The notes below the pieces were generated by a model that worked only from the letters and a program-made list of their open reading frames with translations, ran no database searches and was not told the origin of the DNA. From Terriglobia bacterium (GTDB lineage: Bacteria > Acidobacteriota > Terriglobia > JAIQFV01), in NCBI GenBank assembly GCA_028716525.1, contig JAQUPQ010000015.1:1237-65236 (forward strand): a stretch of 64,000 nt of DNA, written 5' to 3'. The position numbers were made by a program, and so were the translations under genes. Shown piece by piece: positions 8,802 through 64,000 of the stretch (position 1 is the stretch's first letter; the number at the start of each line of letters is the position of its first letter).

Positions 8802-8878
8802 TGGTCGGGGCGATCCGATTTGAACGGACGACCACTCGCACCCCAAGCGAGTGCGCTACCAGGCTGCGCCACGCCCCG
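8802..8878 (-). tRNA. tRNA-Pro (anticodon GGG)
   Basis: Reverse complement folds as a cloverleaf: acceptor CGGGGCG/CGCCCCG, D-arm GCGCAGCCTGGTAGCGC, anticodon stem CTCGC/GCGAG with loop TTGGGGT, T-arm GGTTCAAATCC, 3' CCA encoded. Confidence 0.85.
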
Positions 8879-8905: not shown

Positions 8906-8984
<79 letters not shown>

Positions 8985-9614: not shown

Positions 9615-11003
9615 TCAACGCGCCGACGAGCGGCCTTTTTTGATGCGCTGCTCAATGCGGATGGGCGTTCCTTCAAAACCAAAATGCTCCCGAATGCGGT
9701 TGATCAAAAAACGCTCGAAACCGAAATGAAACCGGCCCCGCCGATTTGTAAACAGGACGAAGGTGGGCGGACCCCAGCGGGTTTGAGTGGCATAAAAAAT
9801 TTTGGCGCGCTGCGACATCGGCACGGTAGCCCGTTCGATATCCAGTTTTTGAAAAAAGCGATTCAACTCCCCGGTGGTGATATGCCGCCGCCGCTGCCGG
9901 GCCACTTCCACCACGCGCTGCATGAGATTCGTAACTCGCTGCCCCGTCAACGCTGAAATGAACACCACGGGGGCATACTCCAGGAACTTGGCGCGCCGGC
10001 GGACGCTTGCTTCAAAACGTTTCGCGGCATCGGGGGTTTTCTTGGCCAAGTCCCATTTGTTGACCACCAGCACCAGGGACTTGCCGGCGTCGTGGGCGTA
10101 GCCCGCAATGGTGGCGTCTAACGCCGTGATTCCCTCCACGGCGTCGATCAACAGCAGCGCCACCTCAGATTGTTCGAGGTGTTTGCGCGCCAGAACGACG
10201 CTCAATTTTTCGGCAATTAACTTGGTCTTACCCTTGCGCCGAATGCCGGCGGTATCGACCAGACGAAAGCGCTGTCCCTCGCGTTCCACCAGCGCGTCCA
10301 CGCTGTCGCGCGTAGTCCCGGGAAGCGGCGAAACAATGGCCCGCTCTTTGCCGCAGAGGTTGTTGAGAAGAGTCGATTTCCCGACGTTGGGACGCCCCAT
10401 GATGGCCACCCGAATTTCCTCTTCCGGGCCGGCAACGGCCGCGTTTGAAGTTTCCTGGTCGGACGATGCCTGCTCTCCAAGCGCTTTCTCCGGGCCAGGG
10501 CGCAAGTGCGGTTGCGAAAACAGGACATCCAACATTTCCGTGATATTGTGGCTGTGTTCGGCTGAAATAAAAAAAACAGGCTCGATACCCAGGCGGTGAA
10601 ACTCGCCGGCGGCAGCGACCTGTTGCGGCGAATCGACTTTGTTCACCACCAGGGCCAACGGCTTTCCCAACGGTCTTAACAAATGCGCCAACTCCTCGTC
10701 GAGCGGCACCACACCTTCCCGGAAATTGGTCACCAACAAAACTTGTGCGGCCTCCTGAAGAGCCGTGCGCGCTTGCTTCAGAATGCTCTGGGCAATCACA
10801 TCTTCGTCATGAGGCAACAGGCCGCCGGTGTCCACGACTTCGAGCTGCCGTCCGCCCCATTCCAAGCGGCCGTAGATGCGATCGCGCGTGATGCCGGGCT
10901 CGTCCGTCACGATGGAGCGACGACGCCCCACCAGGCGGTTGAAGAGCGTCGACTTCCCCACGTTGGGGCGGCCCACAATGGCCAGCAGTGGCATTTTGCT
11001 CAT
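9615..11003 (-). CDS. der: Ribosome biogenesis GTPase Der (EngA), tandem GTPase domains + KH-like domain
   Basis: Two G-domains, each with [10 protein letters not shown] (G1), DTGG/DTAG (G3) and NKVD/NKWD (G4). Confidence 0.95.
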
Positions 11004-11544
11004 ACCACGCCAAGGTATGCGGTGAAGAAAAATCTGTCAAGCTGAGAAGAAATTCTTTTGTGTACACCCCGAGGGTTTGGAGACATGGTCGGATTGAAAA
11101 TTCCACACTCCAAGCACCCCAATCCAGATAAAATCCAATTCCCAAGAAAGCCAAGAACTCATGCTGTTATCTCGGATTTGGAGATCGGATATTGATATTT
11201 GGAATTTGTCTGGAGTTGGGTCACCGGGATTTGGATTTTTTCTCTACAGCCGGCAAGGTGGACAACTGTGCTATCGACGAACACCCCTCTATTTGTCGAC
11301 ATTTATGGTAGATCGCTTCACCGCCGAGACGCAGAGGCCGCAAAGAAAGCGCGAAGATTTTTTCCAACATTTGTTCATCTTGAAAACTCTCATTCCAGAC
11401 ACCTGATCAACGGCCCCTACGCCGCACACTCGACCCTCACACCTCGCACCTCAAACCGGATGACTCTTCTAAATTTTAAGGTTTGAATTTCGCCTGGAAT
11501 TTGATATTGGAAGTCTCCTGGGAGAACGCGCACCTCAAATCGGT

Positions 11545-20842: not shown

Positions 20843-21267
20843 GGGCCTCGCCGGGCCTTCGGAAACTCCGAAGTTGCGCATTGAAATTCCTGGAGGAAAA
20901 TGGATATGCCTTATCTTATGCATTTTTAAAATGTTAAAGGATCCCCTCCGAAGGGGAACGCTCCTCCCCGTGCAACAATATCGCAACACGATATAGTGTA
21001 CTGTTTTGGCTGGACGATTGCAGTACAACAATGTGCCAAATATTACAAGCTTAAGAAACTGATGTTTGAACGGGCGCGCGCGCCTTCGGGGTCTTGCAAA
21101 CACAAGTTATCGAGGAATGTTTAACGCTCTTCGTTCTGAGGAAATCGGGTGGGTTTTTCCGAGGCGGCTTGTCACGCAAGCCGCGTTTTGCCCCCAACAA
21201 TCAATTCGGCATCATGATCAGATTTCAGGCAGCACATTCAAACCCTACTTCGACAGGAGGATATTCC

Positions 21268-24200
21268 ATGAAGGATTTGCATCGGCAGCGTTTTGTTCGC
21301 CTCTTAAGCGGCGTTGTATTAGCCGCTCTCTTCTTCCTACCCGCGCTGCAGAGGGCGCAGTCGACCGTATCGTCGGGGAGCATTCAAGGCACCATCAGTG
21401 ATCCCACGGGTGCTGTGGTCCCGGGCGCGGTCATTAAGATCACCAACGCCGCGACCTCGCAATCTATTGCAGTGAGCAGCAGCAGCACGGGTACCTACAA
21501 CTCCGGCGCTTTGTTGCCGGGCAGTTACACCGTGCGCGTCACAGCGAAGGGATTCAAAACTTCCGAAGCCACGGTGTCGGTTCAGGTCGGTGTCACCACA
21601 CCCGCCAATGTAACCCTGCAGCTGGGTGCGGAGAGCACGGTGGTTTCCGTGGAGGAATCCGCTAACGTGGTGAATACCGAACAAGCCTCGGTTCAGGGTG
21701 TGATGACCACTCAACAGATCGAAAATCTTCCTATTGGCGGGCGCAATTTCCTCGATCTGGCGCAGTTGCAACCGGGCGTACAAATTCAGGACGGATCGAA
21801 TTTCGATCCCACCAAGAACGGATTTCAATCCATTTCATTCGGCGGAAGATTCGGACGCACCGCCCGCATTGAAGTCGATGGCGTGGACATCAGCGACGAA
21901 ACCGTCGGCACCACCACGCAAAACATCCCCGCCAGCGGCATTCAAGAATTTCAGGTGGGGCAATCGACCCTGGATCTGTCGACCGAGCTGACCTCTTCCG
22001 GCGCCGTCAACGTGGTCACGCGTTCCGGCAGCAACCAGCTTCACGGGGAATTCTTTGACGTCTATCGGAACGACAACTTTGCGGCCCGCTTGTCCAATCA
22101 GCCGACCCCCTTCGACCGCGAGCAATTCGGCGCGCGCATTGGCGGACCCTTCATCAAAGACAAACTCTTTTTCTTTATGGACTACGAACGCACGATTCAG
22201 GACCAGGCCGCCCCGGCCGCACTGACCGCTCCCTTTTCCGGTTTCGACACGGGAATCAACTCGCCGTTTCATGAAAGCGAATTGTTGGGGCGCCTCGACT
22301 GGCAGATCAAGCCCGACATGCGGGCCTTCTATCGATGGACCTACGATCAGAACGACAGCTTCGTGCCCTTCATTCCGAACACTTTTTCGTTGTTCCGCAA
22401 CCGCGACAACACACCCGTTCAGGCGGCCGGACTGGATTTTAATACCGGCTCCTTCACGCACAGCATCCGGTTTGGATACACCCGTTTCCGCAATGCCATC
22501 GCGGACGCGAGTTTCAGTCTGCCCAATCCGGCGCCGGGCGTGGAACTGGCTATCGGCAACGACCCCTTCTGCCTGACGGCAGGGGCGGATCAATTCTGCT
22601 CCGGTCCCAATATTCTGGCCCCGCAACAAACCTTGCAGCACAACACGCAGATTAAGTACGACGGCAGCAAGGTGTTCCACTCCCACATTTTCCGTTACGG
22701 CGTCAGCCTGAACCACATTCTGGGCGGCGGCTTTGCAAACTTCTTCGGCTTGGCTCCGCCGGCCAGTTCCCAACTGACGGCGGCGACCGAAGCCTTTGCC
22801 GCCAGTGGCCCTCTGGCCGGAGGCGCCAGCAATCCGGCTAATTACCCTGCACAGTTTGTGCTGCTGGGAAACGGCCAAGGATTCTTCTCGGAAATTCCGC
22901 AATTTGGTCTTCCGGCGGGCGGGCAATATGATAATCGGTTTGCCTGGTATTTCGGCGACACTTGGAAGGTGCGGCCGAATCTGACCCTGACCTACGGAAT
23001 CCGCTATGACCGCGACACCGGCCGATCCGACAGCGATCTTCCGGCCGTAGCAGCGCTCAATCAGCTCGCGCCCGGCCTCGGAAATCCGGTCCATCAGCCC
23101 AACAGGAACTTCGCGCCTCAAGCGGGTATCGCTTGGGATCCTTGGAACAATGGAAAGACGGTCTTTCGCGCGGGAATCGGGCTCTACTATGAGAACGCGA
23201 TTTTCAACAACGTCTTGTTCGACCGTCCCGGGCGCCTCACCAAGGGATTGTTCAACGGGACGGCCTTAGCTTGCTTGGACAGTCAAGCTGTTCCTGTCAC
23301 ATTTCCGAACGGAACCACGGTGACCCCGGCGTTCTGCGGCCAGCCCATCGGATCAGTCGCCAGCCAGATCGCGGCGTTGCAATCCCAATTCCAAGCCGCC
23401 GTGGCGGCCGCGGGCCCGCAAAGCAACGGCAGCTTCTTTGGAAACGCTATGGCCGCCGGAAGCTTAGTCAACGGCGTGACTTTCTTCTCCCCCGATTATC
23501 GCTCTCCTTACTCCGTGCAAATGAACGTGGGAGTTGAACATCAATTGGGGAAAGGCATCGTCATCTCGGCCGACTATCTGAGAAACGTGGGATTGCACTA
23601 TCTGGTCGCCTATGATGTGAACCACACGGGCGACGCCCGGTTTTTGAATAAAGGAGCCGCTGTCGCAGCGATTACCGCCACCAACGCCGCGTTTGGATGC
23701 CCGCCGGGACAGGCCGGCATCACTTGCGCCATCAACAATGGAGCGACCATCGCCGACTACGCCGGAAACGGATTGACCTCCACGGCGGAATTTTCCGGAG
23801 GCTTTCCTGCACCTGGAAGTATCGCCTTCGGTGGAATCAATCCCAATTTCGGCGAAGTCTTCATGAACTTTCCGATCGGCCGTTCCGTCTACAACGCCCT
23901 GCAGATTTCCTTGCGGATGAACCGGGCGCATCCGCTGCCGTTCGTCCGTAACGCCAACCTTCAGGTGTCCTATTCCTTGTCACGATTCAACAGCATGGTA
24001 CGTGACCAGGATTTCGTGAACAATGCCATCGACAACAACAATGTGAACGGATTCTTCGGTCCGAATTCCCTGGATCGCACCAGCCAGTTGTCGTACGGAG
24101 GAACATTGGATCTTCCGGGCGCACTGCGGGCCAGTTTCATTTCCCACATCTACTCGCCGTTGTCCACCACCTTGACAGTTGCTCCGGTAGGAACGGGCGG

Positions 24201-24756
24201 CGAAATTTTCATGACGGATTTTACGGGCGACGGCACGATAGGTGATGTCATACCCGGAACCAACGTCGGCGCCTTCGGGCGAGGCATCGATTCGGGCAAC
24301 ATCAACAGCTTCATCAGTGCCTACAACAGCCAATTCGCCGGCAAGCTCACGCCCGCCGGCCAGGCCTTGGTCAGTTCCGGCCTATTCACTCAGGCGCAAT
24401 TGATTGCCTTGGGCGCCGTTGCTCCCACGGTGCCGTTGGCCCCGGCAAACCAGGTGAATCTGAGCTGGCTCACGACTTTCGATTTCCGCTTGGGTTGGGA
24501 ATTGAAGCCGCATCGGGTGATGGACCGCATTCCGGAAGGCGTGGTCGTGGAGCCCAGTGTTTCAATTTACAATCTGTTCAACTTTGCCAACTTTGACGGA
24601 CCCAGCAACCCCATGAGCGGGCAGTTGAACGGATCAGCCGGTTCGGTGAACGGAACTACACCCGGGGATCGCACCAACCGCATCGGATTGGGTTCGGGTG
24701 TGTTCGGCCTGGGCGCCCCGAGACAGTTTGAATTCGGGGTCAAAGTCACTTTCTAG
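21268..24756 (+). CDS. TonB-dependent receptor with N-terminal carboxypeptidase-regulatory-like domain (Acidobacteria-type)
   Basis: AGGAGG RBS then ATG at 21268, signal peptide, CarboxypepD_reg domain (GTISDPTGAVVPGAVIKITN...GSYTVRV), TonB plug (NxxxLPIGGRNFLDLAQLQPGV) and about 900-aa barrel ending in aromatic F. The upstream 58 codons of the ORF are not part of the protein. Confidence 0.85.
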   Translation: MKDLHRQRFVRLLSGVVLAALFFLPALQRAQSTVSSGSIQGTISDPTGAVVPGAVIKITNAATSQSIAVSSSSTGTYNSGALLPGSYTVRVTAKGFKTSEATVSVQVGVTTPANVTLQLGAESTVVSVEESANVVNTEQASVQGVMTTQQIENLPIGGRNFLDLAQLQPGVQIQDGSNFDPTKNGFQSISFGGRFGRTARIEVDGVDISDETVGTTTQNIPASGIQEFQVGQSTLDLSTELTSSGAVNVVTRSGSNQLHGEFFDVYRNDNFAARLSNQPTPFDREQFGARIGGPFIKDKLFFFMDYERTIQDQAAPAALTAPFSGFDTGINSPFHESELLGRLDWQIKPDMRAFYRWTYDQNDSFVPFIPNTFSLFRNRDNTPVQAAGLDFNTGSFTHSIRFGYTRFRNAIADASFSLPNPAPGVELAIGNDPFCLTAGADQFCSGPNILAPQQTLQHNTQIKYDGSKVFHSHIFRYGVSLNHILGGGFANFFGLAPPASSQLTAATEAFAASGPLAGGASNPANYPAQFVLLGNGQGFFSEIPQFGLPAGGQYDNRFAWYFGDTWKVRPNLTLTYGIRYDRDTGRSDSDLPAVAALNQLAPGLGNPVHQPNRNFAPQAGIAWDPWNNGKTVFRAGIGLYYENAIFNNVLFDRPGRLTKGLFNGTALACLDSQAVPVTFPNGTTVTPAFCGQPIGSVASQIAALQSQFQAAVAAAGPQSNGSFFGNAMAAGSLVNGVTFFSPDYRSPYSVQMNVGVEHQLGKGIVISADYLRNVGLHYLVAYDVNHTGDARFLNKGAAVAAITATNAAFGCPPGQAGITCAINNGATIADYAGNGLTSTAEFSGGFPAPGSIAFGGINPNFGEVFMNFPIGRSVYNALQISLRMNRAHPLPFVRNANLQVSYSLSRFNSMVRDQDFVNNAIDNNNVNGFFGPNSLDRTSQLSYGGTLDLPGALRASFISHIYSPLSTTLTVAPVGTGGEIFMTDFTGDGTIGDVIPGTNVGAFGRGIDSGNINSFISAYNSQFAGKLTPAGQALVSSGLFTQAQLIALGAVAPTVPLAPANQVNLSWLTTFDFRLGWELKPHRVMDRIPEGVVVEPSVSIYNLFNFANFDGPSNPMSGQLNGSAGSVNGTTPGDRTNRIGLGSGVFGLGAPRQFEFGVKVTF

Positions 24757-24860: not shown

Positions 24861-25247
24861 ATGGCTGAAACTCTTCGGTAGTAACTCAAGTGGCCCGTCG
24901 GTCAAGCTGAAGTCGCCGCGGAGCGGCGTAATCGAGTAGCCTGGGGTGGGGGCTGGCCTTAGAGCCTCCACCCCAGGTAAGAGAGCTCTTCATGGAGGGC
25001 AATTGTGCCGCCCTGTCAGGGCTGACGGGGGTGGTCCATAGGGAGAAGAGATGACGACCCTCTTCCTTGGGTCGCGGGCTCCAATAAAGCTGGAGCTCCG
25101 CGGCCAAGTTGGCGCTACGGCAAGAGGATCTCACATCGAGCCCCCCCTTCCCTTCCATTTGCTTCTCGTCCACCTCCCCTTCCGGTATAATTGATCGCAC
25201 CCCAAGGAAGCGGTAGTTTTCGAATTTCAGTTTCGCGGAGATCGGGC

Positions 25248-29607: not shown

Positions 29608-30015
29608 CCAATCTTTGGTTTCCTCCCCGACCATAGATTCGGCCAGTCTCCGCGGACCCTCCGCGTCCTTTGCGCCTCGGCGGTGAAGGACCTAGTTTGT
29701 GACATGAACTGGTTAGCCCCCTCAACATCGCATCAGACAGATTGACAAACCCCAACCGAAAATGGCAGAATCCCTGCCGTATCCTAAAAGAAGAGACATT
29801 CTTAAATCATAAGCTTTCTTAAGATTTATGGCGTGAGGACTTACGCTAGCGCCGCGATCAGCACGCGGGAGGGGAGTTTTTCCTAATAACACCCTCTTGC
29901 CGATATTGGGGGGCCGTTCATCGCGTGATGCACAAGTGTCCAAAAGATTGCTGCAATGACATTCGAAGCCAAGTTGCAAATTTCGTGAATTTCACCAACT
30001 AACACAGGAGATAAC

Positions 30016-32042: not shown

Positions 32043-33599
32043 ATGAAAAGACAGGTTTTTCGCATTGCATGCCTTGGCATTTGTTGGTTTATTCTTATGA
32101 GTCTTGTGCTCCATGCCCAGACTCCTTGTGTTGTCAATGGATTCAACAATGCTCGTGTCGATGGGGGATACAGCATCATTGATGGGAGTGTTTATACTAA
32201 CCTCCGCAGCAAGCTTTCAAATCCGACCTTTTTCAGTTTTGCGTCAGGAGCCGCTCCCTTTCCCATCCAGTTGCAATCGGGCTTATCGACGGTGGGTTCC
32301 TCCTCGCTCCAGCCGGGAAATCCGACTGTGTTTGTAACCGGCTGGACCGCCACGTCAAGCTATACCCCGACCGAGAAAACGAATATTCTTAATGCGGTGA
32401 TGAACGGGGTCAGCATTATTGTCCAAGCAGACGATATCAACCACAGCATTGTTGATCTCTTTGGCCTGACCCAAGTGAATAGCGGCACGGGGGGAGGAAG
32501 CACCAATCAAGAGATCGCGGATTACGATAACCCCGTCATGAATGGCCCCTTCGGCCGAGTGGGTCTGTTGATACCGGCCGGGTTTGTGGGTCAGTTCTCG
32601 GGTGTTCCCGGGAATGCCACCCTTCTGGCGCGTAATATCGGTGGATCAACTGGCGGAAACACGGCAGCCGTAGTCATATTTCGAGAGAACGCCCTCGGGC
32701 CAACCTCTGGACGTGTGGTGATTTTGAACGACTCGGATTATGCCGGTAATTCTGAGGCTACCAGCCCCAACGGCAACGACGCGACCGTCATGTTCCTCAA
32801 TGCCTTGGCCTTTGCCTGCTTCATTCCCGATGCCCCTGGCGGTGCCAATTACAATACCTACTACTTCCCGCAAATCGCATTCAACGGCGGTTTCAGCACT
32901 GTCGAACAGTCTTCCAACGGCACTACTGGAAACACGATCGCCAATATTCAGTTCACCAATTTTGATGACAACGGAAGCTCCATTGGGTCATGCTCGTTTT
33001 CCACTGAACCGGGCAGTGGGACCAACAGCTGTGTTACCAACGGGACTTTATCCTCCCCGATTAAGACCGGCTGGGCGTGGATTCGCTCCGACGACCTGCA
33101 TGCGTTTTTTGCCCAGGAGAAGTTCATTCAGTCGGACGGATCCGGAAATCCCATTACTGCAGTGGGTGTTCCGCCGGCACAACTAGGACGGGCGTTCACA
33201 CTGGTCGGATTCTTGGGCCCCTTGGACGACATTGGAATTGCCTTTCTGGCCCTTCCTACAGATCCCGCAACCGCTCACATCCAGGTGATGGCATTCAACT
33301 CTGGTGGAAGCCAGGTGGGGAGCACCGGTAGCATCAATTTGCCACCGGGTACGCACACGGCCGCATTCATTGATGGAATCGTGAGTGTCAATCGGAACAC
33401 CCTCACCCCCACAAATCTGTCGGTGGTCATCACGAGCGACCAACAACTGGCCATCACCGGTTTGGCTTCCAATGATCCGGGCTTCAAACTGAGTGGAATC
33501 CCCACGTTGCCGGGCCGGCTAATTACGCTGTTTGCCGTAACTAAAAATGCAACGGGAAGAGCTTCCAGGTCAGTAGAGTCTGGCCGGTCGAGCCATTAG
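32043..33599 (+). CDS. Secreted hypothetical protein, paralog B of the tandem pair (unknown function)
   Basis: Signal peptide (MKRQVFRIACLGICWFILMSLVLHAQT). Collinear similarity to 30016..31461, plus an extra about 40-aa C-terminal tail. Confidence 0.7.
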   Translation: MKRQVFRIACLGICWFILMSLVLHAQTPCVVNGFNNARVDGGYSIIDGSVYTNLRSKLSNPTFFSFASGAAPFPIQLQSGLSTVGSSSLQPGNPTVFVTGWTATSSYTPTEKTNILNAVMNGVSIIVQADDINHSIVDLFGLTQVNSGTGGGSTNQEIADYDNPVMNGPFGRVGLLIPAGFVGQFSGVPGNATLLARNIGGSTGGNTAAVVIFRENALGPTSGRVVILNDSDYAGNSEATSPNGNDATVMFLNALAFACFIPDAPGGANYNTYYFPQIAFNGGFSTVEQSSNGTTGNTIANIQFTNFDDNGSSIGSCSFSTEPGSGTNSCVTNGTLSSPIKTGWAWIRSDDLHAFFAQEKFIQSDGSGNPITAVGVPPAQLGRAFTLVGFLGPLDDIGIAFLALPTDPATAHIQVMAFNSGGSQVGSTGSINLPPGTHTAAFIDGIVSVNRNTLTPTNLSVVITSDQQLAITGLASNDPGFKLSGIPTLPGRLITLFAVTKNATGRASRSVESGRSSH

Positions 33600-33605
33600 A
33601 AAACC

Positions 33606-33699
33606 AGGGACAGACACCGGCGGCTCAACACATTGGAAAGAGTAAAGCCTGAGGTGTCTGTCCCTATCTTCGGGATGCTTCAAGAAAGGAAGCATCCCG
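33606..33699 (+). terminator. Two consecutive strong hairpins downstream of paralog B (terminator-like, no T-run)
   Basis: 13-bp perfect stem AGGGACAGACACC...GGTGTCTGTCCCT with a 34-nt loop, immediately followed by an 11-bp stem CGGGATGCTTC/GAAGCATCCCG. Confidence 0.45.
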
Positions 33700-33812
33700 G
33701 CTACCAGATTACTTTGCCCATTCCCCCAAGATTCAGTAGAATGCCCACTTTACAAATCGACGGTTGACACCGCCGGCGCGGCGCCACCGAACGGAGCACT
33801 CTCTCAAAACTC

Positions 33813-45481: not shown

Positions 45482-46063
45482 CTACTTGTGACAATCCAGA
45501 CAGGCATCGGAACGCCCGCGGGCGGCATGACACCGTGAGCACTCCGTCATCTTCATGCCTCGCGAGAAGCCGGCAATGTTCTGCCCCCAGATATCGCGGC
45601 TGTACCCGCTGAGGCGATTGCGTTGGAATTCCCGCAACGACTCACTCGACCCGTGCGATCCATGGCATTCATCGCATTTCAGCCGGGCTTGCCGGACATG
45701 AAAGAGATGTGAGAAATAGGTGTTATCGGGTTGCCGGGAATACACGCGCCACGGGATTTCTTCGCCCGGGACGATGTATTTTTCGACGAGAAGTTTTTCG
45801 TCCGCAGAAGCCGTCAATGGCGCGGCATGGCACTCCGCGCACTTGGAGACGCTTGGAATTCCGGCAAACGAGCCGTCGCTGCGGAAGGCGTGGCAATCGT
45901 CACATTTCAAGCCGACTTTTTCCGAGGTGTGAACGCGATGGCTGAATTGCAGTGGTTGATCGATCCGCTCATAAAGCATCCGGGGAAATCCCATCCATCC
46001 AATCCCCAGTGCGGCCAATAATCCAGCCGCAAAAAATAAGAGGCCTCGATTCATTACCACCAT
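45482..46063 (-). CDS. Membrane-anchored pentaheme c-type cytochrome (NapC/NrfH/ActA-like)
   Basis: N-terminal TM helix, then five CxxCH motifs (CDDCH, CAECH, CDECH, CSRCH, CLDCH) in 193 aa. Confidence 0.85.
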   Translation of the reverse strand: MVVMNRGLLFFAAGLLAALGIGWMGFPRMLYERIDQPLQFSHRVHTSEKVGLKCDDCHAFRSDGSFAGIPSVSKCAECHAAPLTASADEKLLVEKYIVPGEEIPWRVYSRQPDNTYFSHLFHVRQARLKCDECHGSHGSSESLREFQRNRLSGYSRDIWGQNIAGFSRGMKMTECSRCHAARGRSDACLDCHK

Positions 46064-52507: not shown

Positions 52508-52810
52508 TCAACCTTTGACATGACACTTGGCGCAATTACCCGCCGACGGGAAGGCTTTCCCACCAGCCACATGGCAGGCCCCACAGGATTTCTTGGCGGC
52601 TTCCGCGGGCTTATGCATTCCCGCGGCGAAATTCAAGGGCGCCTTTTTCTGTGGAAACAAGGTGTCGTGGCACGTCTTGCAGTTATTCTTCTCACGGGCC
52701 ACGTGCTTGGCGTGATCAAAGGTTACCTTTCCGGTCTTGGCCTCAAACACGAGCTTGTCGGGAGCCTTCTGGGCCAACAGGTTCAAGGTCAAAATGGAAA
52801 ATAGAAGTCC
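52508..52810 (-). CDS. Small periplasmic triheme cytochrome c (cytochrome c7/c3-family-like)
   Basis: Signal peptide MKKYLSIFLILGLLFSILTLNLLA, then three CxxCH motifs (CKTCH, CGACH, CAKCH) in an about 75-aa mature protein with many Lys. Start trimmed to MKKYLS. Confidence 0.75.
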   Translation of the reverse strand, partial: GLLFSILTLNLLAQKAPDKLVFEAKTGKVTFDHAKHVAREKNNCKTCHDTLFPQKKAPLNFAAGMHKPAEAAKKSCGACHVAGGKAFPSAGNCAKCHVKG

Positions 52811-53053
52811 AAGGATTAAAAAGATTGAGAGATATTTCTTCATCGGGTCGAGCCTCCTGGTATGAAAGATCAACTGCGTTCTCTCACAAACAATTGGATG
52901 TGATTGTATGCATTCTCCGTTGTTTTTCAATCTATTTAATTTCCCATTCTGACGTCAACGTGCAATTTTGACGGCGCGTATCTTGAAGTGAGTTCTTGTC
53001 TATCACTACGGATTGATGCTTGGCCTTTAACTCAAAATTCATGGAGGATGATT

Positions 53054-57865: not shown

Positions 57866-58323
57866 TCTGTCGCCCCTGAAGGGGCTGCGCGATAAGGTCC
57901 TACAACCTACCCCACCCTTGCTCTCCGCCTACGGCGGACGAGCGGAGGGTGGGGCTACTATCTGACCGGCCCTCCGGGCCTAACCGAATCGACCACCATC
58001 ATTTTCATGCTCCTATTGACGAAGATAAAATATAGAGACAGACAGCAGCTCTTGGCGACGCGCCATCGTTTGGGTAGCCGCGGTGCGGTTTCTGCACCGC
58101 GGGACTCGAGGCGTCACTATATTCTGTCAGCATCTGCAGGCGCGACAAAAGCCCATGAGGAACTGCTCCGAAAACAGATGGAGCTCTGGTAGCCACCCCG
58201 ATGGATCGGGGTGGGGTTTTCCCTAATCCATCTCAAGAGCTTACCCCGATTCATCAGGGTGGGCTCTTTCTGCCTTCCAGATATCTTCAAGCAAAACAAT
58301 CAAGCCCCTTCAGGGGCGACAGA
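57866..58323. repeat. about 460-bp structured non-coding element bounded by perfect 20-bp terminal inverted repeats (element 1)
   Basis: TCTGTCGCCCCTGAAGGGGC at 57866-57885 and its exact reverse complement at 58304-58323. Interior is hairpin-rich (CCGCGGTGC..GCACCGCGG; CCACCCCGATGGATCGGGGTGG followed by TTTT at 58185-58219). No credible ORF. Confidence 0.7.
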
Positions 58324-58337
58324 ACCTTATCGACAAA

Positions 58338-58733
58338 TCAAAAAATCTTTCGGATTTTGGCCACTCCGATCGCGGTTCCCTTGGCGGCATGCGCGGCCGA
58401 TTTTCCAACACCAATCCCCACGTTCTTTCCAAATCCCCCGACCCCTGCACCAAACGCCATCGTTCCCTTAATCGGCTCGCCTTGCACGGTGTCCGACGCC
58501 AGCTTCACGCTGCCGTCCCCCAAATCGGACCCGGCTTTTCCCGCATGCGTGGTGAGCGTTTCTCCGGACTTCTTGAATTCAGTAACGGAAGAATCGGACT
58601 TCTGATGATGATTGGCCTTCTTGCTGCTGGAGACGGCGTATGAATCGTTGTCTGAAGCCGTTGTCGATTGCGCCAACAAAAAGGCAGGACACAAAAGAAG
58701 AAGCAAAAAGATCATGTATCGAGCTGGTCGCAT
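58338..58733 (-). CDS. Small secreted Gly/Ala/Lys-rich protein (unknown function)
   Basis: Signal peptide MRPARYMIFLLLLLCPAFLLAQS, then low-complexity GxGxG-rich C-terminus. Compositionally plausible but unsupported by motifs. Confidence 0.4.
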   Translation of the reverse strand: MRPARYMIFLLLLLCPAFLLAQSTTASDNDSYAVSSSKKANHHQKSDSSVTEFKKSGETLTTHAGKAGSDLGDGSVKLASDTVQGEPIKGTMAFGAGVGGFGKNVGIGVGKSAAHAAKGTAIGVAKIRKIF

Positions 58734-59013
58734 GAAAACCCTCCAATGAAATCCTGGTTTTTGATCATTCTATTGGATGTTGAAAAGTATAAAAGAAGTT
58801 GGCTCGGGAAGAACGGGTGTCGGGTGTCAGGTGTCGGGCCGTCAGGTCCGCCCACTTTTTGGCAGATGCCCGGGATGAGGTGTGAGACACCACCTTGCCC
58901 CCAACCGCGCCTTTGCCGTAAACTTCGTATATCGATTGATTTAATAAAGAGCCGCGGCCCCGGCTTCCCAAGATGGAAGCGAGGGGCCATTTGCATTCGA
59001 AGGATTTGAAACC

Positions 59014-60345
59014 ATGAACCTCAAATCTCGCGTTGTCGCCGCCACCCTCGGGCTCGTGTTCCTTGCCGCTTATGTGGTTTTATCTTGCCGCTCGCGCTCC
59101 ATGGGCGGCGAAAATTCATCCGGTGACTTAAGAATATTTCACGACTATCGCACCGAAAAACCCGGACAGACTTACAAGATTACAGTCGCCGATCTTCCCC
59201 GACCTTATACCACGCACTCCGTAGACAACGGTCCGCGCCTTATCCGGCGTCCCGCCGATGCCTGGCCGCAAGCGCCTGCAGGTTTCAAAGTGGATCAATA
59301 CGCCGCGGGACTCGACAATCCCCGTCTTCTTCGCACCGCGCCCAACGGCGATGTGTTTCTGGCCGAGAGCCGGCCGGGGCGCATCAAAATTTTTCGGGGA
59401 GTCGACAAGAACGGTCAAGCCCAAACGGTCAGCGTTTTTGCGTCCGGATTGGATCTGCCCTTCGGAATCGCTTTTTATCCGCCCGGGCCCAACCCGAAAT
59501 ATGTTTATGTGGGTAACACCGGGTCGGTGGTTCGATTTCCTTATGAAAACGGTGACTTGAAAGCGCGCGGCCCGGCAGAAACTATCGCGGAGATTCCCAG
59601 CGGCGGACACCTTCGCGGCGGTGGACACTGGACCCGCGATCTGGCTTTTTCTCTTGATGGCCAACACCTTTTCATTTCCGTCGGCTCGCACTCCAACGTC
59701 GATGACACCGACGGCAATCCTCGCGAACACAATCGCGCCGACATTCTCGAAGCCAATCCCGACGGAACAGGGCTCCACGTCTACGCCTGGGGAATTCGCA
59801 ACGCCGTCGGCATTGCCGTTCATCCCCGCAGCGGCGAACTGTGGGCTTCAGTGAACGAACGCGACGAACTCGGCGACAATCTTCCCCCCGATTACATCAC
59901 GCACATTCAGGAAGGCGGTTTCTACGGCTGGCCGTGGTTTTACATCGGCGACCACCAGGATCCCCGCCACGCCGGCAAACATCCCGAACTAAGAAACAAC
60001 GTCATCGTGCCGGATGTGCTCCTCCAACCGCATTACGCTTCACTGGAATTAGCTTTTTATGAAGGCAGCGGCGCCTCGGCATTTCCAAAAGAATATTCCG
60101 GCGAAATCTTCGCGGCCGAACACGGGTCTTGGAACCGCGCTCTTCGGACTGGTTATGAAGTCATCCGGGTTCCATTGAAAGACAGACACGCCACGGGCGA
60201 GTATCAGGATTTCCTGACGGGCTTTGTGACACCCCAAGGCGAAGTGTGGGGTCGTCCGGTGGGCGTGGCCGTTGCGCCCGACGGATCGCTCTTGATCAGC
60301 GACGACGGATCGGAATCCATCTGGCGAGTGAGCTATACGAGATAG
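59014..60345 (+). CDS. PQQ-dependent sugar (glucose/sorbosone) dehydrogenase-family beta-propeller protein
   Basis: Signal/TM N-terminus. Conserved SGDH-family blocks (LDNPRLLRTAPNGDVFLAE...GRI, GWPWFYIGDHQDP, GSLLISDDG). Confidence 0.75.
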   Translation: MNLKSRVVAATLGLVFLAAYVVLSCRSRSMGGENSSGDLRIFHDYRTEKPGQTYKITVADLPRPYTTHSVDNGPRLIRRPADAWPQAPAGFKVDQYAAGLDNPRLLRTAPNGDVFLAESRPGRIKIFRGVDKNGQAQTVSVFASGLDLPFGIAFYPPGPNPKYVYVGNTGSVVRFPYENGDLKARGPAETIAEIPSGGHLRGGGHWTRDLAFSLDGQHLFISVGSHSNVDDTDGNPREHNRADILEANPDGTGLHVYAWGIRNAVGIAVHPRSGELWASVNERDELGDNLPPDYITHIQEGGFYGWPWFYIGDHQDPRHAGKHPELRNNVIVPDVLLQPHYASLELAFYEGSGASAFPKEYSGEIFAAEHGSWNRALRTGYEVIRVPLKDRHATGEYQDFLTGFVTPQGEVWGRPVGVAVAPDGSLLISDDGSESIWRVSYTR

Positions 60346-60409
60346 CCTCGGTAGCCATGATGCTTCGCTCCTCAGAGCATTCTGGGAATCGGATTCATTT
60401 CGAACAGAA

Positions 60410-60900
60410 GAACCACTCACCGCAGAGGCGCAGAGGGCGCCGAGAACACTTGGTTATTTTCGGGGCTGCTCCTCACGCGTTGTGGTCGCACCCGGGATCA
60501 TGAAAATGGCAGGATCTGGTAGCCACCCCAATTCATCGGGGAGGCTACCAAAGCGCCACCTGTTTTCAAGGCAGTTCTCCATACCCCGATGGGTCAGGGC
60601 ACCCAAGGGAATGAAAATCACCAGGTCGCTCCATTCGAGGCCCGCAGGGCCGACCAGAATTTAGCCCCGTCCGATGCTCCACGCCTTTTGTGGAGCAAGG
60701 GCGGGGTACGGTGATGGGCAGGGCCGTCCAGCCCGCCTTGGCGGGCGGCAGAACAGCCTGTTCGAGACACTTGACCATCCAGTGAGATAGACAGAAACAG
60801 ATTAGGAACCAGAACCGGCATCCGAATAAATCTGTTCTTCATACAGCCATTGAACCTCTGCGCAACCTCTGCGTTCTCTGCGCCTCCGCGGTGAGTGGTT
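60410..60900. repeat. about 490-bp structured non-coding element bounded by 26-bp terminal inverted repeats (element 2, homologous to element 1)
   Basis: GAACCACTCACCGCAGAGGCGCAGAG at 60410-60435 versus reverse complement of 60875-60900 (1 mismatch). Interior contains the same two motifs as element 1: CTGGTAGCCACCCC..ATCGGGG hairpin (60516-60549) and TACCCCGAT..TCAGGG (60583-60605). Confidence 0.7.
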
Positions 60901-60910
60901 CTCAAAATCT

Positions 60911-62438: not shown

Positions 62439-62855
62439 TCAATTCTGCCTTGTTGTTGACGAGGGCGTGCGGGTGATCAGCGCCACACCCACACAGATGC
62501 ACACGACGCCCGTCCAGCGCAGAGCCGTTACCGATTCGCCCAGCCACCAGCGGCTGAAAATCGCCAGCAGGACATAGTTCAGTGCCGACGCCGGCATCAC
62601 AAAACTGAAGTCGGCCCACGAGAGAATCACCATGAAAGAAATCAGAAAAAGAAGCAGGCCGGCAATCCCCAGCCAGATCCAGCCGTTCGTAAAGACTTTT
62701 ATGAAGAGCAGGCCCAGCGCCGCCGGCGTCCACTCGTGGACATCACCAATCTGCCGCATGCCCATGCCCAGCAAGACATTGCCGATCGCCGAGAAAAAAA
62801 TGATCGGAACCAGAATGGTGTAGGTTTTCAACTGCAAGTTTTGTGGCTGAGACAT
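62439..62855 (-). CDS. Half-size DMT-superfamily (EamA/SMR-like, 4-TMS) transporter subunit
   Basis: Four TM helices. The 40 N-terminal codons of the ORF as given are a translation of the upstream tandem repeat, so start trimmed to MSQPQNL. Confidence 0.55.
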   Translation of the reverse strand: MSQPQNLQLKTYTILVPIIFFSAIGNVLLGMGMRQIGDVHEWTPAALGLLFIKVFTNGWIWLGIAGLLLFLISFMVILSWADFSFVMPASALNYVLLAIFSRWWLGESVTALRWTGVVCICVGVALITRTPSSTTRQN

Positions 62856-62874
62856 AAGAAGAAAAGAGGTCCGT

Positions 62875-62971
62875 GGGTGGCGCAGGCACGCGTTCGTGGC
62901 ATGTCTGCGGTGTGTCAGATAGGCGGGTGGCGCAGACATGCGCTCGTGGCATGTCTGCGGGATCTCAGACA
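62875..62971. repeat. Two-copy 50-bp tandem direct repeat immediately upstream of the DMT/glycosyltransferase operon
   Basis: GGGTGGCGCAGGCACGCGTTCGTGGCATGTCTGCGGTGTGTCAGATA (62875-62921) and GGGTGGCGCAGACATGCGCTCGTGGCATGTCTGCGGGATCTCAGACA (62925-62971), about 85% identical, 20-115 bp upstream of the predicted start. Confidence 0.75.
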
Positions 62972-63269
62972 CCTTCCTTTACTTGATCCCTACCTGTCGA
63001 ATCATCCTCAGTCCCCCCGATTCCTCGGGGCGCCACCCAACAGCTATTCTAACCCGAGTCACGCCAACGAGAAATCAAAGCTCGGTAGCGCCGGCAAGTT
63101 CTTGAGCCGGCGAAAAACAACAGCCGCCGCCTTAAAGAACAGGCGGCGCTACCAAAACCGGTCATCATAAGCACCGGCTCGATGTTGAACCTGATCTCTT
63201 GAATAATGTAGACTCTCATCTTGAAGGTGCCCTGCAACAAGGAGGCACAAACCTTCCGGGAGGCCTACC

Positions 63270-63791
63270 ATGAACCGTGCCGCGTTGTTGGCGCTTGTGC
63301 TTTGCCTGATGATTCTGTTGATGGGTTGTCCCTACGAGTCGACCGTTCCGATCGGCGCTCCCGGGCCGGGCTCATTGGATGCGCGCCTGTCGGGTCACTG
63401 GACTTCGACGGATTCAAAAGACGGCAAGGTCACGAAGATTGACTTTGCGCCGTTCAACAAAACCGAATATCACGTCGAAGCCCGAGAGCAGGACCAGCCG
63501 ACTGATGTGGAGCGCTATCGCGTCTACACAGTGAAGATCGGCGAGCGGTTGTTTCTCAACATCAACGAAATCAAAACCGAAGCCAAGCCGGGTCCGTATT
63601 ACCTGGCTGAATACTCCTTTTCTAAATCCGGCGAGCTCTCGATGCGTTTCGTGAGCGACACGGTAGTTCCAAAGTCTCTGCAATCCGATCCCAAGGGTTT
63701 AGTGAATTATTTGGAAAAGCATCCCACCGGCATTTTTGATCCTGACGACCAACCCCTCCTGCTCGAGCGTTCCAAGGAAAAGAAGCGTTAG
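63270..63791 (+). CDS. Lipoprotein of unknown function
   Basis: Lipoprotein signal with lipobox LLMGC (Cys25). About 150-aa mature soluble domain, no known motif. Confidence 0.55.
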   Translation: MNRAALLALVLCLMILLMGCPYESTVPIGAPGPGSLDARLSGHWTSTDSKDGKVTKIDFAPFNKTEYHVEAREQDQPTDVERYRVYTVKIGERLFLNINEIKTEAKPGPYYLAEYSFSKSGELSMRFVSDTVVPKSLQSDPKGLVNYLEKHPTGIFDPDDQPLLLERSKEKKR

Positions 63792-63800
63792 CGCTGGTAG

Positions 63801-63838
63801 CGCAGCCTTCGCCCCGATGAATCGGGGCGAAGGCTGCG
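63801..63838 (+). terminator. Very stable hairpin (18-bp perfect stem) directly after the lipoprotein gene
   Basis: CGCAGCCTTCGCCCCGAT ga ATCGGGGCGAAGGCTGCG. Shares the CCCCGAT..ATCGGGG palindromic core and CTGGTAGC 5' flank with elements 1 and 2. Confidence 0.5.
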
Positions 63839-64000
63839 GCGTTTGTGCACTGGTAGCCCCGGCATTTTTCAGGCCGGCGGATCCCCTCCGCAAATCCCGG
63901 ACTGTCCGGATGAAATAGAATCGACGCAGCGAAAAGCCCCGCCCTGCGGGCGAGCTACCCAAACCGCGATCAATGGGGTAGCACAGCCCAGCCCGTTTTA

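Follow-up and report, generated by a model that had tools for sequence, protein, structure and literature searches.

Tagged hairpin modules in intergenic mosaics bounded by inverted repeats in a Terriglobia genome

We analyze a stretch of 64,000 nucleotides from the metagenome-assembled genome (MAG) of a Terriglobia bacterium (GenBank assembly GCA_028716525.1, contig JAQUPQ010000015.1, positions 1,237 to 65,236 of the forward strand; hereafter, the window), concentrating on a 458-bp intergenic element at 57866-58323 (“el1”) and on a relative of it 2 kb away, at 60409-60902 (“el2”). It is well supported that both elements are mosaics of hairpin modules carrying short sequence tags, that the family to which they belong occurs in at least two Terriglobia genomes, and that it is related to the Acido-Lenti-1 motif of Rfam. 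As to their origin, the reading we favor, and to which we give an even chance of being right, is that el1 and el2 are diverged, oppositely oriented copies of a lineage-specific mosaic akin to repetitive extragenic palindromes (REPs), bacterial interspersed mosaic elements (BIMEs) and inverted REP doublets that form hairpins (REPINs), for which we infer a single-strand mechanism of the Y1 type.

Y1 transposases of the HUH type act on REP-type repeats in single-stranded form, cutting and joining them (Di Nocera 2013, PMC3733652; Quentin 2018, PMC6006769). REP superfamilies tagged with GTAG exist, and Acidobacteria carry tyrosine transposases associated with terminal inverted repeats, or TIRYTs (PMC3733652); in the same 2013 survey, GTAG REPs are not reported from Acidobacteria, where it records no Y1 transposases other than those associated with terminal inverted repeats (TIRs). 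In this phylum, class 3 Y1 transposases have atypical hairpins on their flanks, and Solibacter usitatus has ~600 copies of such hairpins (PMC6006769). The authors of Acido-Lenti-1 (RF01687), for their part, graded it “probably RNA” (Weinberg et al. 2010, PMC2864571). Its published seed comprises 89 copies, most of them many to a genome in Lentisphaera araneosa and in Koribacter versatilis, and the seeds of Lentisphaera araneosa often stand in tandem, 74-200 nt apart (PMC2864571).

The comparisons below make use of a contig from a different soil Terriglobia MAG (CAZIDA010000028.1, GCA_964537865.1; referred to as L038/L044), which encodes a GSDH protein 73% identical to the one encoded in the window.

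The first element and its modules

el1 lies between the 3' end of lldP (plus strand) and the 3' end of a gene for a 131-aa protein (minus strand, 58338-58733; MDD5543107.1 in the annotation of the source MAG). A preliminary description of the sequence had placed the element in a 1.2-kb intergenic gap after lldP; the non-coding gap is in fact 512 nt long and is closed by the 131-aa gene. The terminal inverted repeats reported there are perfect, as claimed, and measure 21 rather than 20 nt: a repeat search pairs 57866-57886 with 58303-58323 at 21/21 positions, leaving 416 nt between the arms. At up to 3 mismatches, the arm sequence (left arm, TCTGTCGCCCCTGAAGGGGCT) has only 2 matches in the window, namely its own two sites, with 0.00 expected. 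We estimate that, by chance, 64 kb would contain ~1e-5 perfect inverted repeats of 21 nt with arms no more than 1 kb apart.

The RNA minimum free energy of el1 is -222.6 kcal/mol, far below that of shuffled sequences (z = -7.4), in agreement with the strong interior hairpins of the preliminary description. That the 416-nt interior holds no credible open reading frame (ORF) is likewise borne out, as Pfam, searched up to E <= 1, matches none of the nine ORFs (41-95 aa) of the two elements. We rejected a decayed coding gene on this ground and because el1 and el2 translate the block conserved between them in different frames. We also rejected a compositional island, since GC content and skew equal those of the surroundings. 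In the Logan assembly of SRR22315506, contigs L041 and L001 end inside el1, at 57937 and 58082, respectively, leaving 144 nt unassembled; the same assembly is unbroken across el2 and across the hairpin-bearing region at 62.9-64.3 kb. The source contig measures 80.6 kb. The source lineage is thinly sampled, to judge from the fact that each of its proteins that we checked is the sole member of its own 90% identity cluster. We conclude that el1 is a true non-coding stretch of short tagged hairpin modules.

These modules are of two kinds. The H module is a GC-rich hairpin of variable sequence with an unpaired GTAG at its foot, usually within YTGGTAGC; read on the other strand, it is a hairpin followed by CUAC or CUAA and a ~10-nt linker, often with a small hairpin next. 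The S module is a tag, (T)TCTG(N)CG, joined to a 5-7-bp hairpin. H modules are found in the window, for example, at 58074, 58189, 60519, 63085, 63797, 63152 (minus strand), 33704 (minus strand) and 24940. In the window plus its extension, GTAG abuts GC-rich hairpins 7 times versus 1.0 expected (p = 8e-5), and it does so 5 times in L038 versus 0.33 expected (p = 2e-5). With perfect stems, the counts are 7 versus 0.73 in shuffles (shuffle maximum 3) and, for the 14 kb of L044, 6 versus 0.07. All these enrichments were counted on stricter hairpin sets, an earlier test of 5-mers next to hairpins with 6-bp stems having been uninformative. S modules number 10, versus 2.95 in shuffles, and half of the observed ones (5/10) lie inside el1 or el2.

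Three H modules (57910-57958 in the minus-strand reading, 58074-58102 and 58189-58214) and three S modules (both arms and 57961-57980) make up the tagged content of el1. The perfect terminal inverted repeat is thus nothing other than two identical S modules in inverted orientation, and hairpin modules like the arms are also found singly and internally. When the nine TTCTGTCG-hairpin units of the two MAGs are aligned, the tag is conserved and the stems are variable and compensating. The parts of el1 and its immediate flank are as follows.

57866-57886, plus strand: left arm, an S module with tag TCTGTCG and hairpin GCCCC-TGAA-GGGGC (S-descriptor scan; alignable to eight further TTCTGTCG-hairpin units of the two MAGs)
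57866-57985, plus strand: V unit of el1, in which an S module is followed by a spacer of ~22 nt, an H module, a GCTA linker and another S module (colinear alignment)
57890-57898, plus strand: 9-mer CGATAAGGT, complementary to 58324-58332 (inverted repeat of 12 nt at 92%)
57910-57958, plus strand: H module, an expanded hairpin CCCCACCC...GGGTGGGG followed by CTAC, so that GTAG stands at its foot on the minus strand (folds)
57955-57981, plus strand: linker CTACTATCTGAC and S-type hairpin GGCCC-TCC-GGGCC, or hp2 (S-descriptor match at 57961)
58001-58008, minus strand: ATGAAAAT module, common to el2 (60500 and 60611) and L044
58013-58170, no strand assigned: insert of ~160 nt that is missing from el2, with an AT-rich stretch and one GTAG hairpin (alignment gap)
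58074-58102, plus strand: H module, GTAG and CCGCGGTGC-GGTTTCT-GCACCGCGG (hairpin scans)
58160-58214, minus strand: block A, which in this reading is hairpin CCACCCCGA-TCCA-TCGGGGTGG, linker CTACCAGA and hairpin GCTCC-AUCUGUUUUC-GGAGC
58235-58268, no strand assigned: hairpin AAGAGC-TTACCCCGATTCATCAGGGTGG-GCTCTT with a degenerate CCCCGAT-NN-ATCGGGG palindrome (repeat search)
58303-58323, minus strand: right arm, S module (inverted repeat, S-descriptor scan)
58324-58332, plus strand: 9-mer ACCTTATCG, partner of 57890-57898 (same inverted repeat search)

Several of these parts have recognizable counterparts. The H module at 57910-57958 is homologous to el2 60664-60708, with a compensatory A-U/G-C change, and is the hairpin called hp1 in the V-unit alignment below; together with it, the linker and hp2 at 57955-57981 form the Acido-Lenti-1-like part of el1. 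Block A, which on the plus strand is GTAG (58189-58192) plus the hairpin at 58193-58214, is the best conserved stretch between the two elements (84% over 55 nt versus el2 60523-60577, E = 8.6e-11), and its pattern occurs at these two sites only. The palindrome CCCCGAT-NN-ATCGGGG is present in 6 copies in the window versus 0.41 expected. On the minus strand, the module at 58074-58102 continues as CTACCCAAACGAT and then a small hairpin, GGCG-ACG-CGCC (58054-58064). Pairing of the 9-mers CGATAAGGT and ACCTTATCG would cross the helix formed by the arms.

A terminator-like hairpin with a T-run had also been noted in the interior, and it is present in el1, as CCACCCCGATGGATCGGGGTGG at 58193-58214 followed by GGTTTTCC. 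The el2 counterpart of this hairpin is trailed by CTACCAAAGC, and we rejected a conserved terminator at this place, as the T-run is not kept there. At the right arm of el1, the minus strand reads a hairpin and then the T-rich tail TTGATTGTTT, 15 nt past the stop of the 131-aa gene, which ends at 58338; judging by this layout, the right arm is terminator-like for that gene.

A perfect inverted repeat around a short interior could also delimit an inverton, in which a recombinase flips the 416-bp interior between the 21-bp repeats and so turns a promoter toward lldP or the 131-aa gene. The lengths of the repeats and of the interior are typical of such switches, weak -35/-10 matches lie near the AT-rich centre on both strands (58002-58031, plus; 58058-58029, minus), a flipped interior would put the 9-mer ACCTTATCG as a direct repeat on either side of the right arm, and the assembly breaks within el1. 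However, there is no recombinase gene within ~6 kb on either side, and the flanking genes end at el1, so that transcription from an internal promoter would enter them in antisense. The two Logan breaks are not at the boundaries of the inverted repeats, the arms of el2 are imperfect, and those of el1 are ordinary S modules of a wider family. We consider an inverton highly improbable.

The second composite and a related genome

el2 is flanked by the 3' ends of two genes, one GSDH-like (plus strand) and one for a GT21 glycosyltransferase (minus strand), and its minimum free energy of -232.8 kcal/mol is again far below that of shuffles (z = -8.2). Its extent and main parts are listed here.

60409-60902, plus strand: el2, the second composite, with 36-nt arms at 60409-60444 and 60867-60902 that are complementary at 32/36 positions (89%) and have 422 nt between them
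60517-60550: double-foot GTAG hairpin (GTAG...CTAC)
60523-60577: block A
60755-60634, minus strand: V unit

The preliminary description had mentioned a homologous element nearby, which is correct, except that el2 is oriented opposite to el1 and has unrelated arm sequences. A global alignment of the two scores 151 with el1 reverse-complemented and 75 in direct orientation, and nhmmer matches between them have E = 2.9e-7 and 2e-5. With respect to the inner gene immediately upstream, which is the 131-aa gene at el1 and GSDH at el2, both elements have the same orientation. The arms of el2 consist of the motif CACCGCNGAGGCGCAGAG. Within each composite the arms are near-identical, yet they differ between composites. 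Single copies of the el2-arm motif TTCACCGCNGAGRCGCARAGG occur at 11316-11345 (plus strand) and 29650-29690 (minus strand); at up to 3 mismatches, this motif has 4 matches in the window versus 0.13 expected.

As el1 and el2 are mutually inverted and bracket exactly two divergently transcribed genes, they might be the long, degenerate inverted ends of a single mobile or duplicated unit of ~3 kb (57866-60902), with the 131-aa and GSDH-like genes as its cargo. The absence of a conserved neighborhood around GSDH homologues in other Terriglobia would suit this proposal. On the other hand, no transposase or recombinase is encoded inside, 57866 and 60902 lack flanking direct repeats, and the composition equals that of the surroundings. 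The cores of el1 and el2 are only ~75-85% alike and their outer ends differ, and L044 has the same modules without such an arrangement. We place very little belief in a unit of this kind.

Modules are shared between the window and the L038/L044 MAG at 85-100% identity. For example, AGCCCGCCTTGGCGGGCGACAGAA of L038/L044 matches el2 60730-60753 at 23/24 positions, and CAAGGGAATGAAAAT is identical (15/15) in el2 and L044 2144-2158. A third composite, of 268 nt, is found at L044 9904-10171; it consists of two inverted V units, and its arms are TTCTGTCG-GTCCCGC-AAA-GCGGGAC and the near-perfect inverse of this sequence. Its site is a 410-nt gap between the genes for the Fer2 and FAD-binding subunits of a cox/xdh-like operon, and the composite looks like an insertion into an operon spacer. 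We compared five GSDH homologues of 72-76% identity; they have other neighbors and short downstream spacers, and modules are present only in the L038/L044 MAG.

The three composites bear on the suggestion, made in the preliminary description, that el1 is a miniature inverted-repeat transposable element (MITE), that is, a deletion derivative of an insertion sequence with a DDE transposase, mobilized in trans via its terminal inverted repeats. The Correia elements of Neisseria are small, non-coding intergenic MITEs with terminal inverted repeats and can fold into a long transcript hairpin. el1 resembles them in all these respects, and its perfect 21-bp repeat, its MITE-like size of 458 bp and its lack of an ORF speak for such an origin. 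It also counts in favor that the composite of the other MAG ends in the same TTCTGTCG tag and that the Logan contigs break within el1. In contrast to Correia-type MITEs, however, el1 has no target-site duplication and no copies sharing its ends, which are independent hairpin modules that occur singly and internally. Target-site duplications are missing at all three composites, the flanks being GAGGTC/ACCTTA at el1, AACAGA/CAAAAT at el2 and ATTTCG/AACACG at L044 9904-10171. The arms of el2 (32/36) are unrelated to those of el1 (21/21), there is no family sharing ends, and the contig breaks lie away from the arms. A check of copy number, too, revealed no further copy in the 451 kb searched or in the public scans described next. 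What holds of the MITE-like description is therefore the boundary formed by inverted repeats, the lack of coding capacity and the tag in common with the L044 composite; a classical MITE is very improbable.

The public scans were made with exact patterns, which require identity at 18-21 positions and would miss copies below ~90% identity. For the conserved blocks of el1 and el2, JGI metagenomes gave 21 matches, all attributable to chance; 13 of the 21 are one conserved protein-coding stretch, presumably ArdC-like from a reading of the translation by eye. The GTDB species representatives, among which the source MAG is evidently not included, gave 10 matches, all by chance, and IMG/VR gave 0 and 4, the latter by chance. 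A blastn search of a plasmid collection returned no match.

The V unit and the Acido-Lenti-1 motif

The V unit is a ~115-nt series of an S module, a ~22-nt spacer, hp1, a GCTA(A/C) linker and the S-type hp2, and it is colinear in 5 copies: el1 57866-57985 (plus strand), el2 60755-60634 (minus strand) and three sites in L044. L044 has 3 V units and a partial one within 14 kb, and the source MAG has 2 within ~70 kb. An nhmmer search with a V-unit profile recovers the input copies, as it must by construction, and nothing further in the 451 kb searched. On hand-curated stems, at least 2 Watson-Crick pair types are seen at 3/7 pairs of the S-module hairpin (hpS), 5/8 of hp1 and 3/5 of hp2, with 3 non-pairs in ~120 cells.

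Part of this unit has the architecture of RF01687, which we took as a hairpin 1 of 8 bp, a GCUA-linker of ~11 nt and a hairpin 2 with a 5-bp stem and a 3-nt loop. Both el1 57910-57981 and el2 60708-60638 consist of a hairpin, CTAC or CTAA, a 9-10-nt linker and GGCCC-NNN-GGGCC. The RF01687 model scores 14.7 bits at el1 57928-57981 (plus strand) and 13.1 bits at el2 60669-60638 (minus strand), which is the homologous place and strand, and the best scores seen, 29.1 and 21.0 bits, are in the L044 composite at 9904-10171; the gathering score of 37 bits is not reached by el1, el2 or L044. The taxon (a Terriglobia/Acidobacteriia MAG) and the occurrence of several copies per genome also agree with the motif. 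Some RF01687 seeds carry the loop GAUGAAUC and the linkers CUACUAUCAGA or CUACCAACUGG of window units, and a Koribacter seed viewed with its flanks has a short GCCCC...GGGGC hairpin ~23 nt upstream, which is the layout of the V unit. On these sequence comparisons, the H-linker-S part of the V unit is a diverged relative of Acido-Lenti-1.

The two have in common a pair of hairpins joined by a GCUA-initiated linker of ~11 nt, a home in Acidobacteria, and a multi-copy, often clustered distribution. They differ in that hairpin 1 is expanded to ~44 nt in el1 and el2, that the V unit is longer, with a third tagged hairpin ~22 nt upstream, that inverted repeats bound the 270-490-nt composites in which the units of the window and of L044 sit, and that the RF01687 model gives no match on the other GTAG hairpins of the window. 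On their complementary strand, several RF01687 units are (G/A/T)TAG-tagged palindromes, and Acido-Lenti-1 may itself be a REP-like DNA repeat instead of a small RNA (sRNA) gene.

This relationship can be turned around, and the composites read as structured non-coding RNA: each would be a 3' extension of the upstream gene (the 131-aa gene or GSDH) or a free RNA, in which the helix of the arms closes a multi-hairpin body and the V unit is an extended Acido-Lenti-1. The folding energies far under those of shuffles (z = -7.4 and -8.2) are what such an RNA would show, as are hairpins that covary and linkers that are kept across the two MAGs. Acido-Lenti-1 is “probably RNA” in the judgment of its authors (PMC2864571), and both window copies are co-oriented relative to the gene just upstream. 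The idea that the arms are a closing helix, raised in the preliminary description, gains some support from the three composites (el1, el2 and L044 9904-10171), all of which have near-identical inverted arms and hence a long closing helix made of unrelated sequences, and from the likeness of part of the interior to Acido-Lenti-1.

Against an RNA stands, first, that these elements reach no Rfam gathering score. At gathering thresholds, the whole window contains only two tRNA genes (8805-8878 and 8909-8982, minus strand), and relaxed scans of el1, el2 and 62850-64000 return microRNA-like hairpin noise and sub-threshold Acido-Lenti-1. Second, module order and orientation vary, with the ATGAAAAT and H modules flipped relative to the V unit. 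Units stand on both strands relative to the flanking genes, and one is in a divergent promoter region (63083-63160). We found no conserved promoter or terminator, G-U versus A-C mismatches favor no consistent strand, and many modules are near-palindromic and so look alike on both strands. Complementarity between GAUNNAUC loops was dismissed as a kissing loop, being an automatic consequence of a near-palindromic motif. The single sRNA-like gene first proposed is not supported, given the Rfam result and the variable order and orientation of the modules, and we regard the broader structured-RNA explanation as rather unlikely.

Likeness to REP-type repeats, and other hairpins in the window

The published definition of a REP (PMC6006769) asks for GT[AG]G at 0-2 nt from the 5' side of a GC-rich basal stem, which must be paired throughout over 7-20 bp, and for a loop of 2-5 nt. 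The tag and stem are as defined at 58074 (9-bp stem), 58189 (9 bp, loop of 4 nt), 57958 on the minus strand and 60519 in el2; the loop of the 58074 unit, at 7 nt, is beyond the 2-5 nt of the definition. The three GTAG units of el1 (57958, 58074 and 58189) are 116 and 115 nt apart, within the spacing of <= 150 nt that defines a REP cluster or BIME (PMC6006769).

The likeness to GTAG-tagged REPs, BIMEs and REPINs, such as the SMAGs of Stenotrophomonas (PMC3733652, PMC6006769), goes further. In both cases, an unpaired GTAG is directly 5' of a GC-rich stem (7-17 bp); there are single units, inverted doublets able to form a long hairpin, clusters with conserved spacers, double-foot units, and units in both orientations; and the units sit between genes, chiefly near 3' ends, one of those described here being inside an operon. 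Stem sequence is free, the modules are reshuffled into mosaics, and target-site duplications are lacking. This last result, at three composites, fits the expectation for Y1 transposition. There are also differences: the stems here are highly diverse, the el1 arms carry another tag (TCTGTCG), and these arms are 416 nt apart versus the 20-100 nt typical of REP dimers.

The hairpins of class 3 Y1 transposases (TnpA-Y1/TIRYT) offer a second comparison within the same phylum (PMC6006769, PMC3733652). Like the modules described here, they are multi-copy, REP-like structures with a short foot tag, sometimes in inverted repeats or clusters. The published foot is CnGA and the TIR motif GGGGWSAS, whereas the modules described here carry CTGTCG (S) or GTAG (H). 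A CnGA foot is seen in the left arm of el2 alone, as it contains CAGA and GGCGC-AGAGG-GCGCC, in agreement with the CnGA-foot hairpins of the acidobacterial enzymes.

Under the REP-like reading that we favor, the hairpins would form in single-stranded DNA, for instance in the lagging-strand template. Their shape, together with the foot tag, would be recognized by a Y1 HUH transposase, of the REP-associated (RAYT) or TIRYT (class 3) type known in Acidobacteria, which would copy or move modules, or inverted doublets of them, without a target-site duplication. Recombination could then shuffle the modules into mosaics. In convergent 3' intergenic DNA, such hairpins probably take on a further role as barriers or terminators at transcript 3' ends, where they would halt or stabilize the RNA, the right arm of el1 being a candidate.

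A number of observations weigh against this reading. No Y1 transposase is encoded among the 10 small ORFs of the window that were screened or among the neighboring genes. The stems vary from unit to unit across the ~70 kb of genome examined, whereas a classical REP is present as many near-identical copies; the Logan contig that runs unbroken through el2 likewise argues against many copies with identical 31-mers, and the JGI, GTDB-representative and IMG/VR scans brought up chance matches only. Modules are missing from the four other Terriglobia loci that we searched. The S tag (CTGTCG) differs from the published GTAG and CGTC tags and from the class 3 foot, CnGA. Finally, a functional RNA would be just as compatible with linkers that are conserved, and stems that covary, across genomes.

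If the favored reading is true, it places GTAG-tagged REP-like palindromes in Acidobacteria, along with a second type of tag, TCTGTCG, and provides a concrete candidate substrate for the Y1 transposases of this phylum. It would also suggest that Acido-Lenti-1, which Rfam lists as an sRNA whose function is not known, belongs to a more extensive DNA repeat, mobile or structural, and it would account for assembly breaks in soil MAGs and for intergenic regions that are long and rich in hairpins. By itself, this reading reveals no new mechanism. A bolder and more doubtful proposal is that the V unit and the composites closed by inverted repeats are an undescribed class of modular Terriglobia element that would extend and re-interpret Acido-Lenti-1. 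The class would be either a substrate of single-strand DNA transposition with foot tags of its own, or a structured RNA of ~270-490 nt whose closing helix is kept up by concerted evolution of the arms. We hold this to be unlikely.

Hairpin modules are also seen elsewhere in the window. A double-foot unit, GGTAGC-hairpin-spacer-hairpin-GCTACCA, sits at 63083-63160, upstream of two divergently transcribed genes, and so the modules are not limited to gene 3' ends. A 36-nt hairpin module, GGGTGGCGCAGACATGCGCTCGTGGCATGTCTGCGG, has two copies in a divergent intergenic region (62875-62910 and 62925-62960) and no Rfam match; L044 6295-6329 is 94% identical over 35 nt to the hairpin module at 62925-62959. 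The 3' side of a gene for a 173-aa protein bears a dense cluster of GTAG-tagged hairpins that spans 63792-64000 and runs on into L001 5711-5950. A hairpin with a 17-bp stem (63801-63838) belongs to this cluster, as does GGGCGAAGGCTGCGGCGTTTGTGC, which is repeated directly and exactly over 24 nt (63825-48 and 64003-26).

Two GTAG hairpins are isolated. One, at 33671-33706, has an 11-bp stem followed by GCTACCAGA and comes after the gene at 32043-33599; the other, at 24936-24977, consists of GAGTAG and a 15-bp stem and comes after the gene at 21094-24756. The small-ORF screen for Y1 transposases also turned up small multihaem c-type cytochromes of the c7/c3 family, at 45482-46063 and 52508-52930, both on the minus strand.

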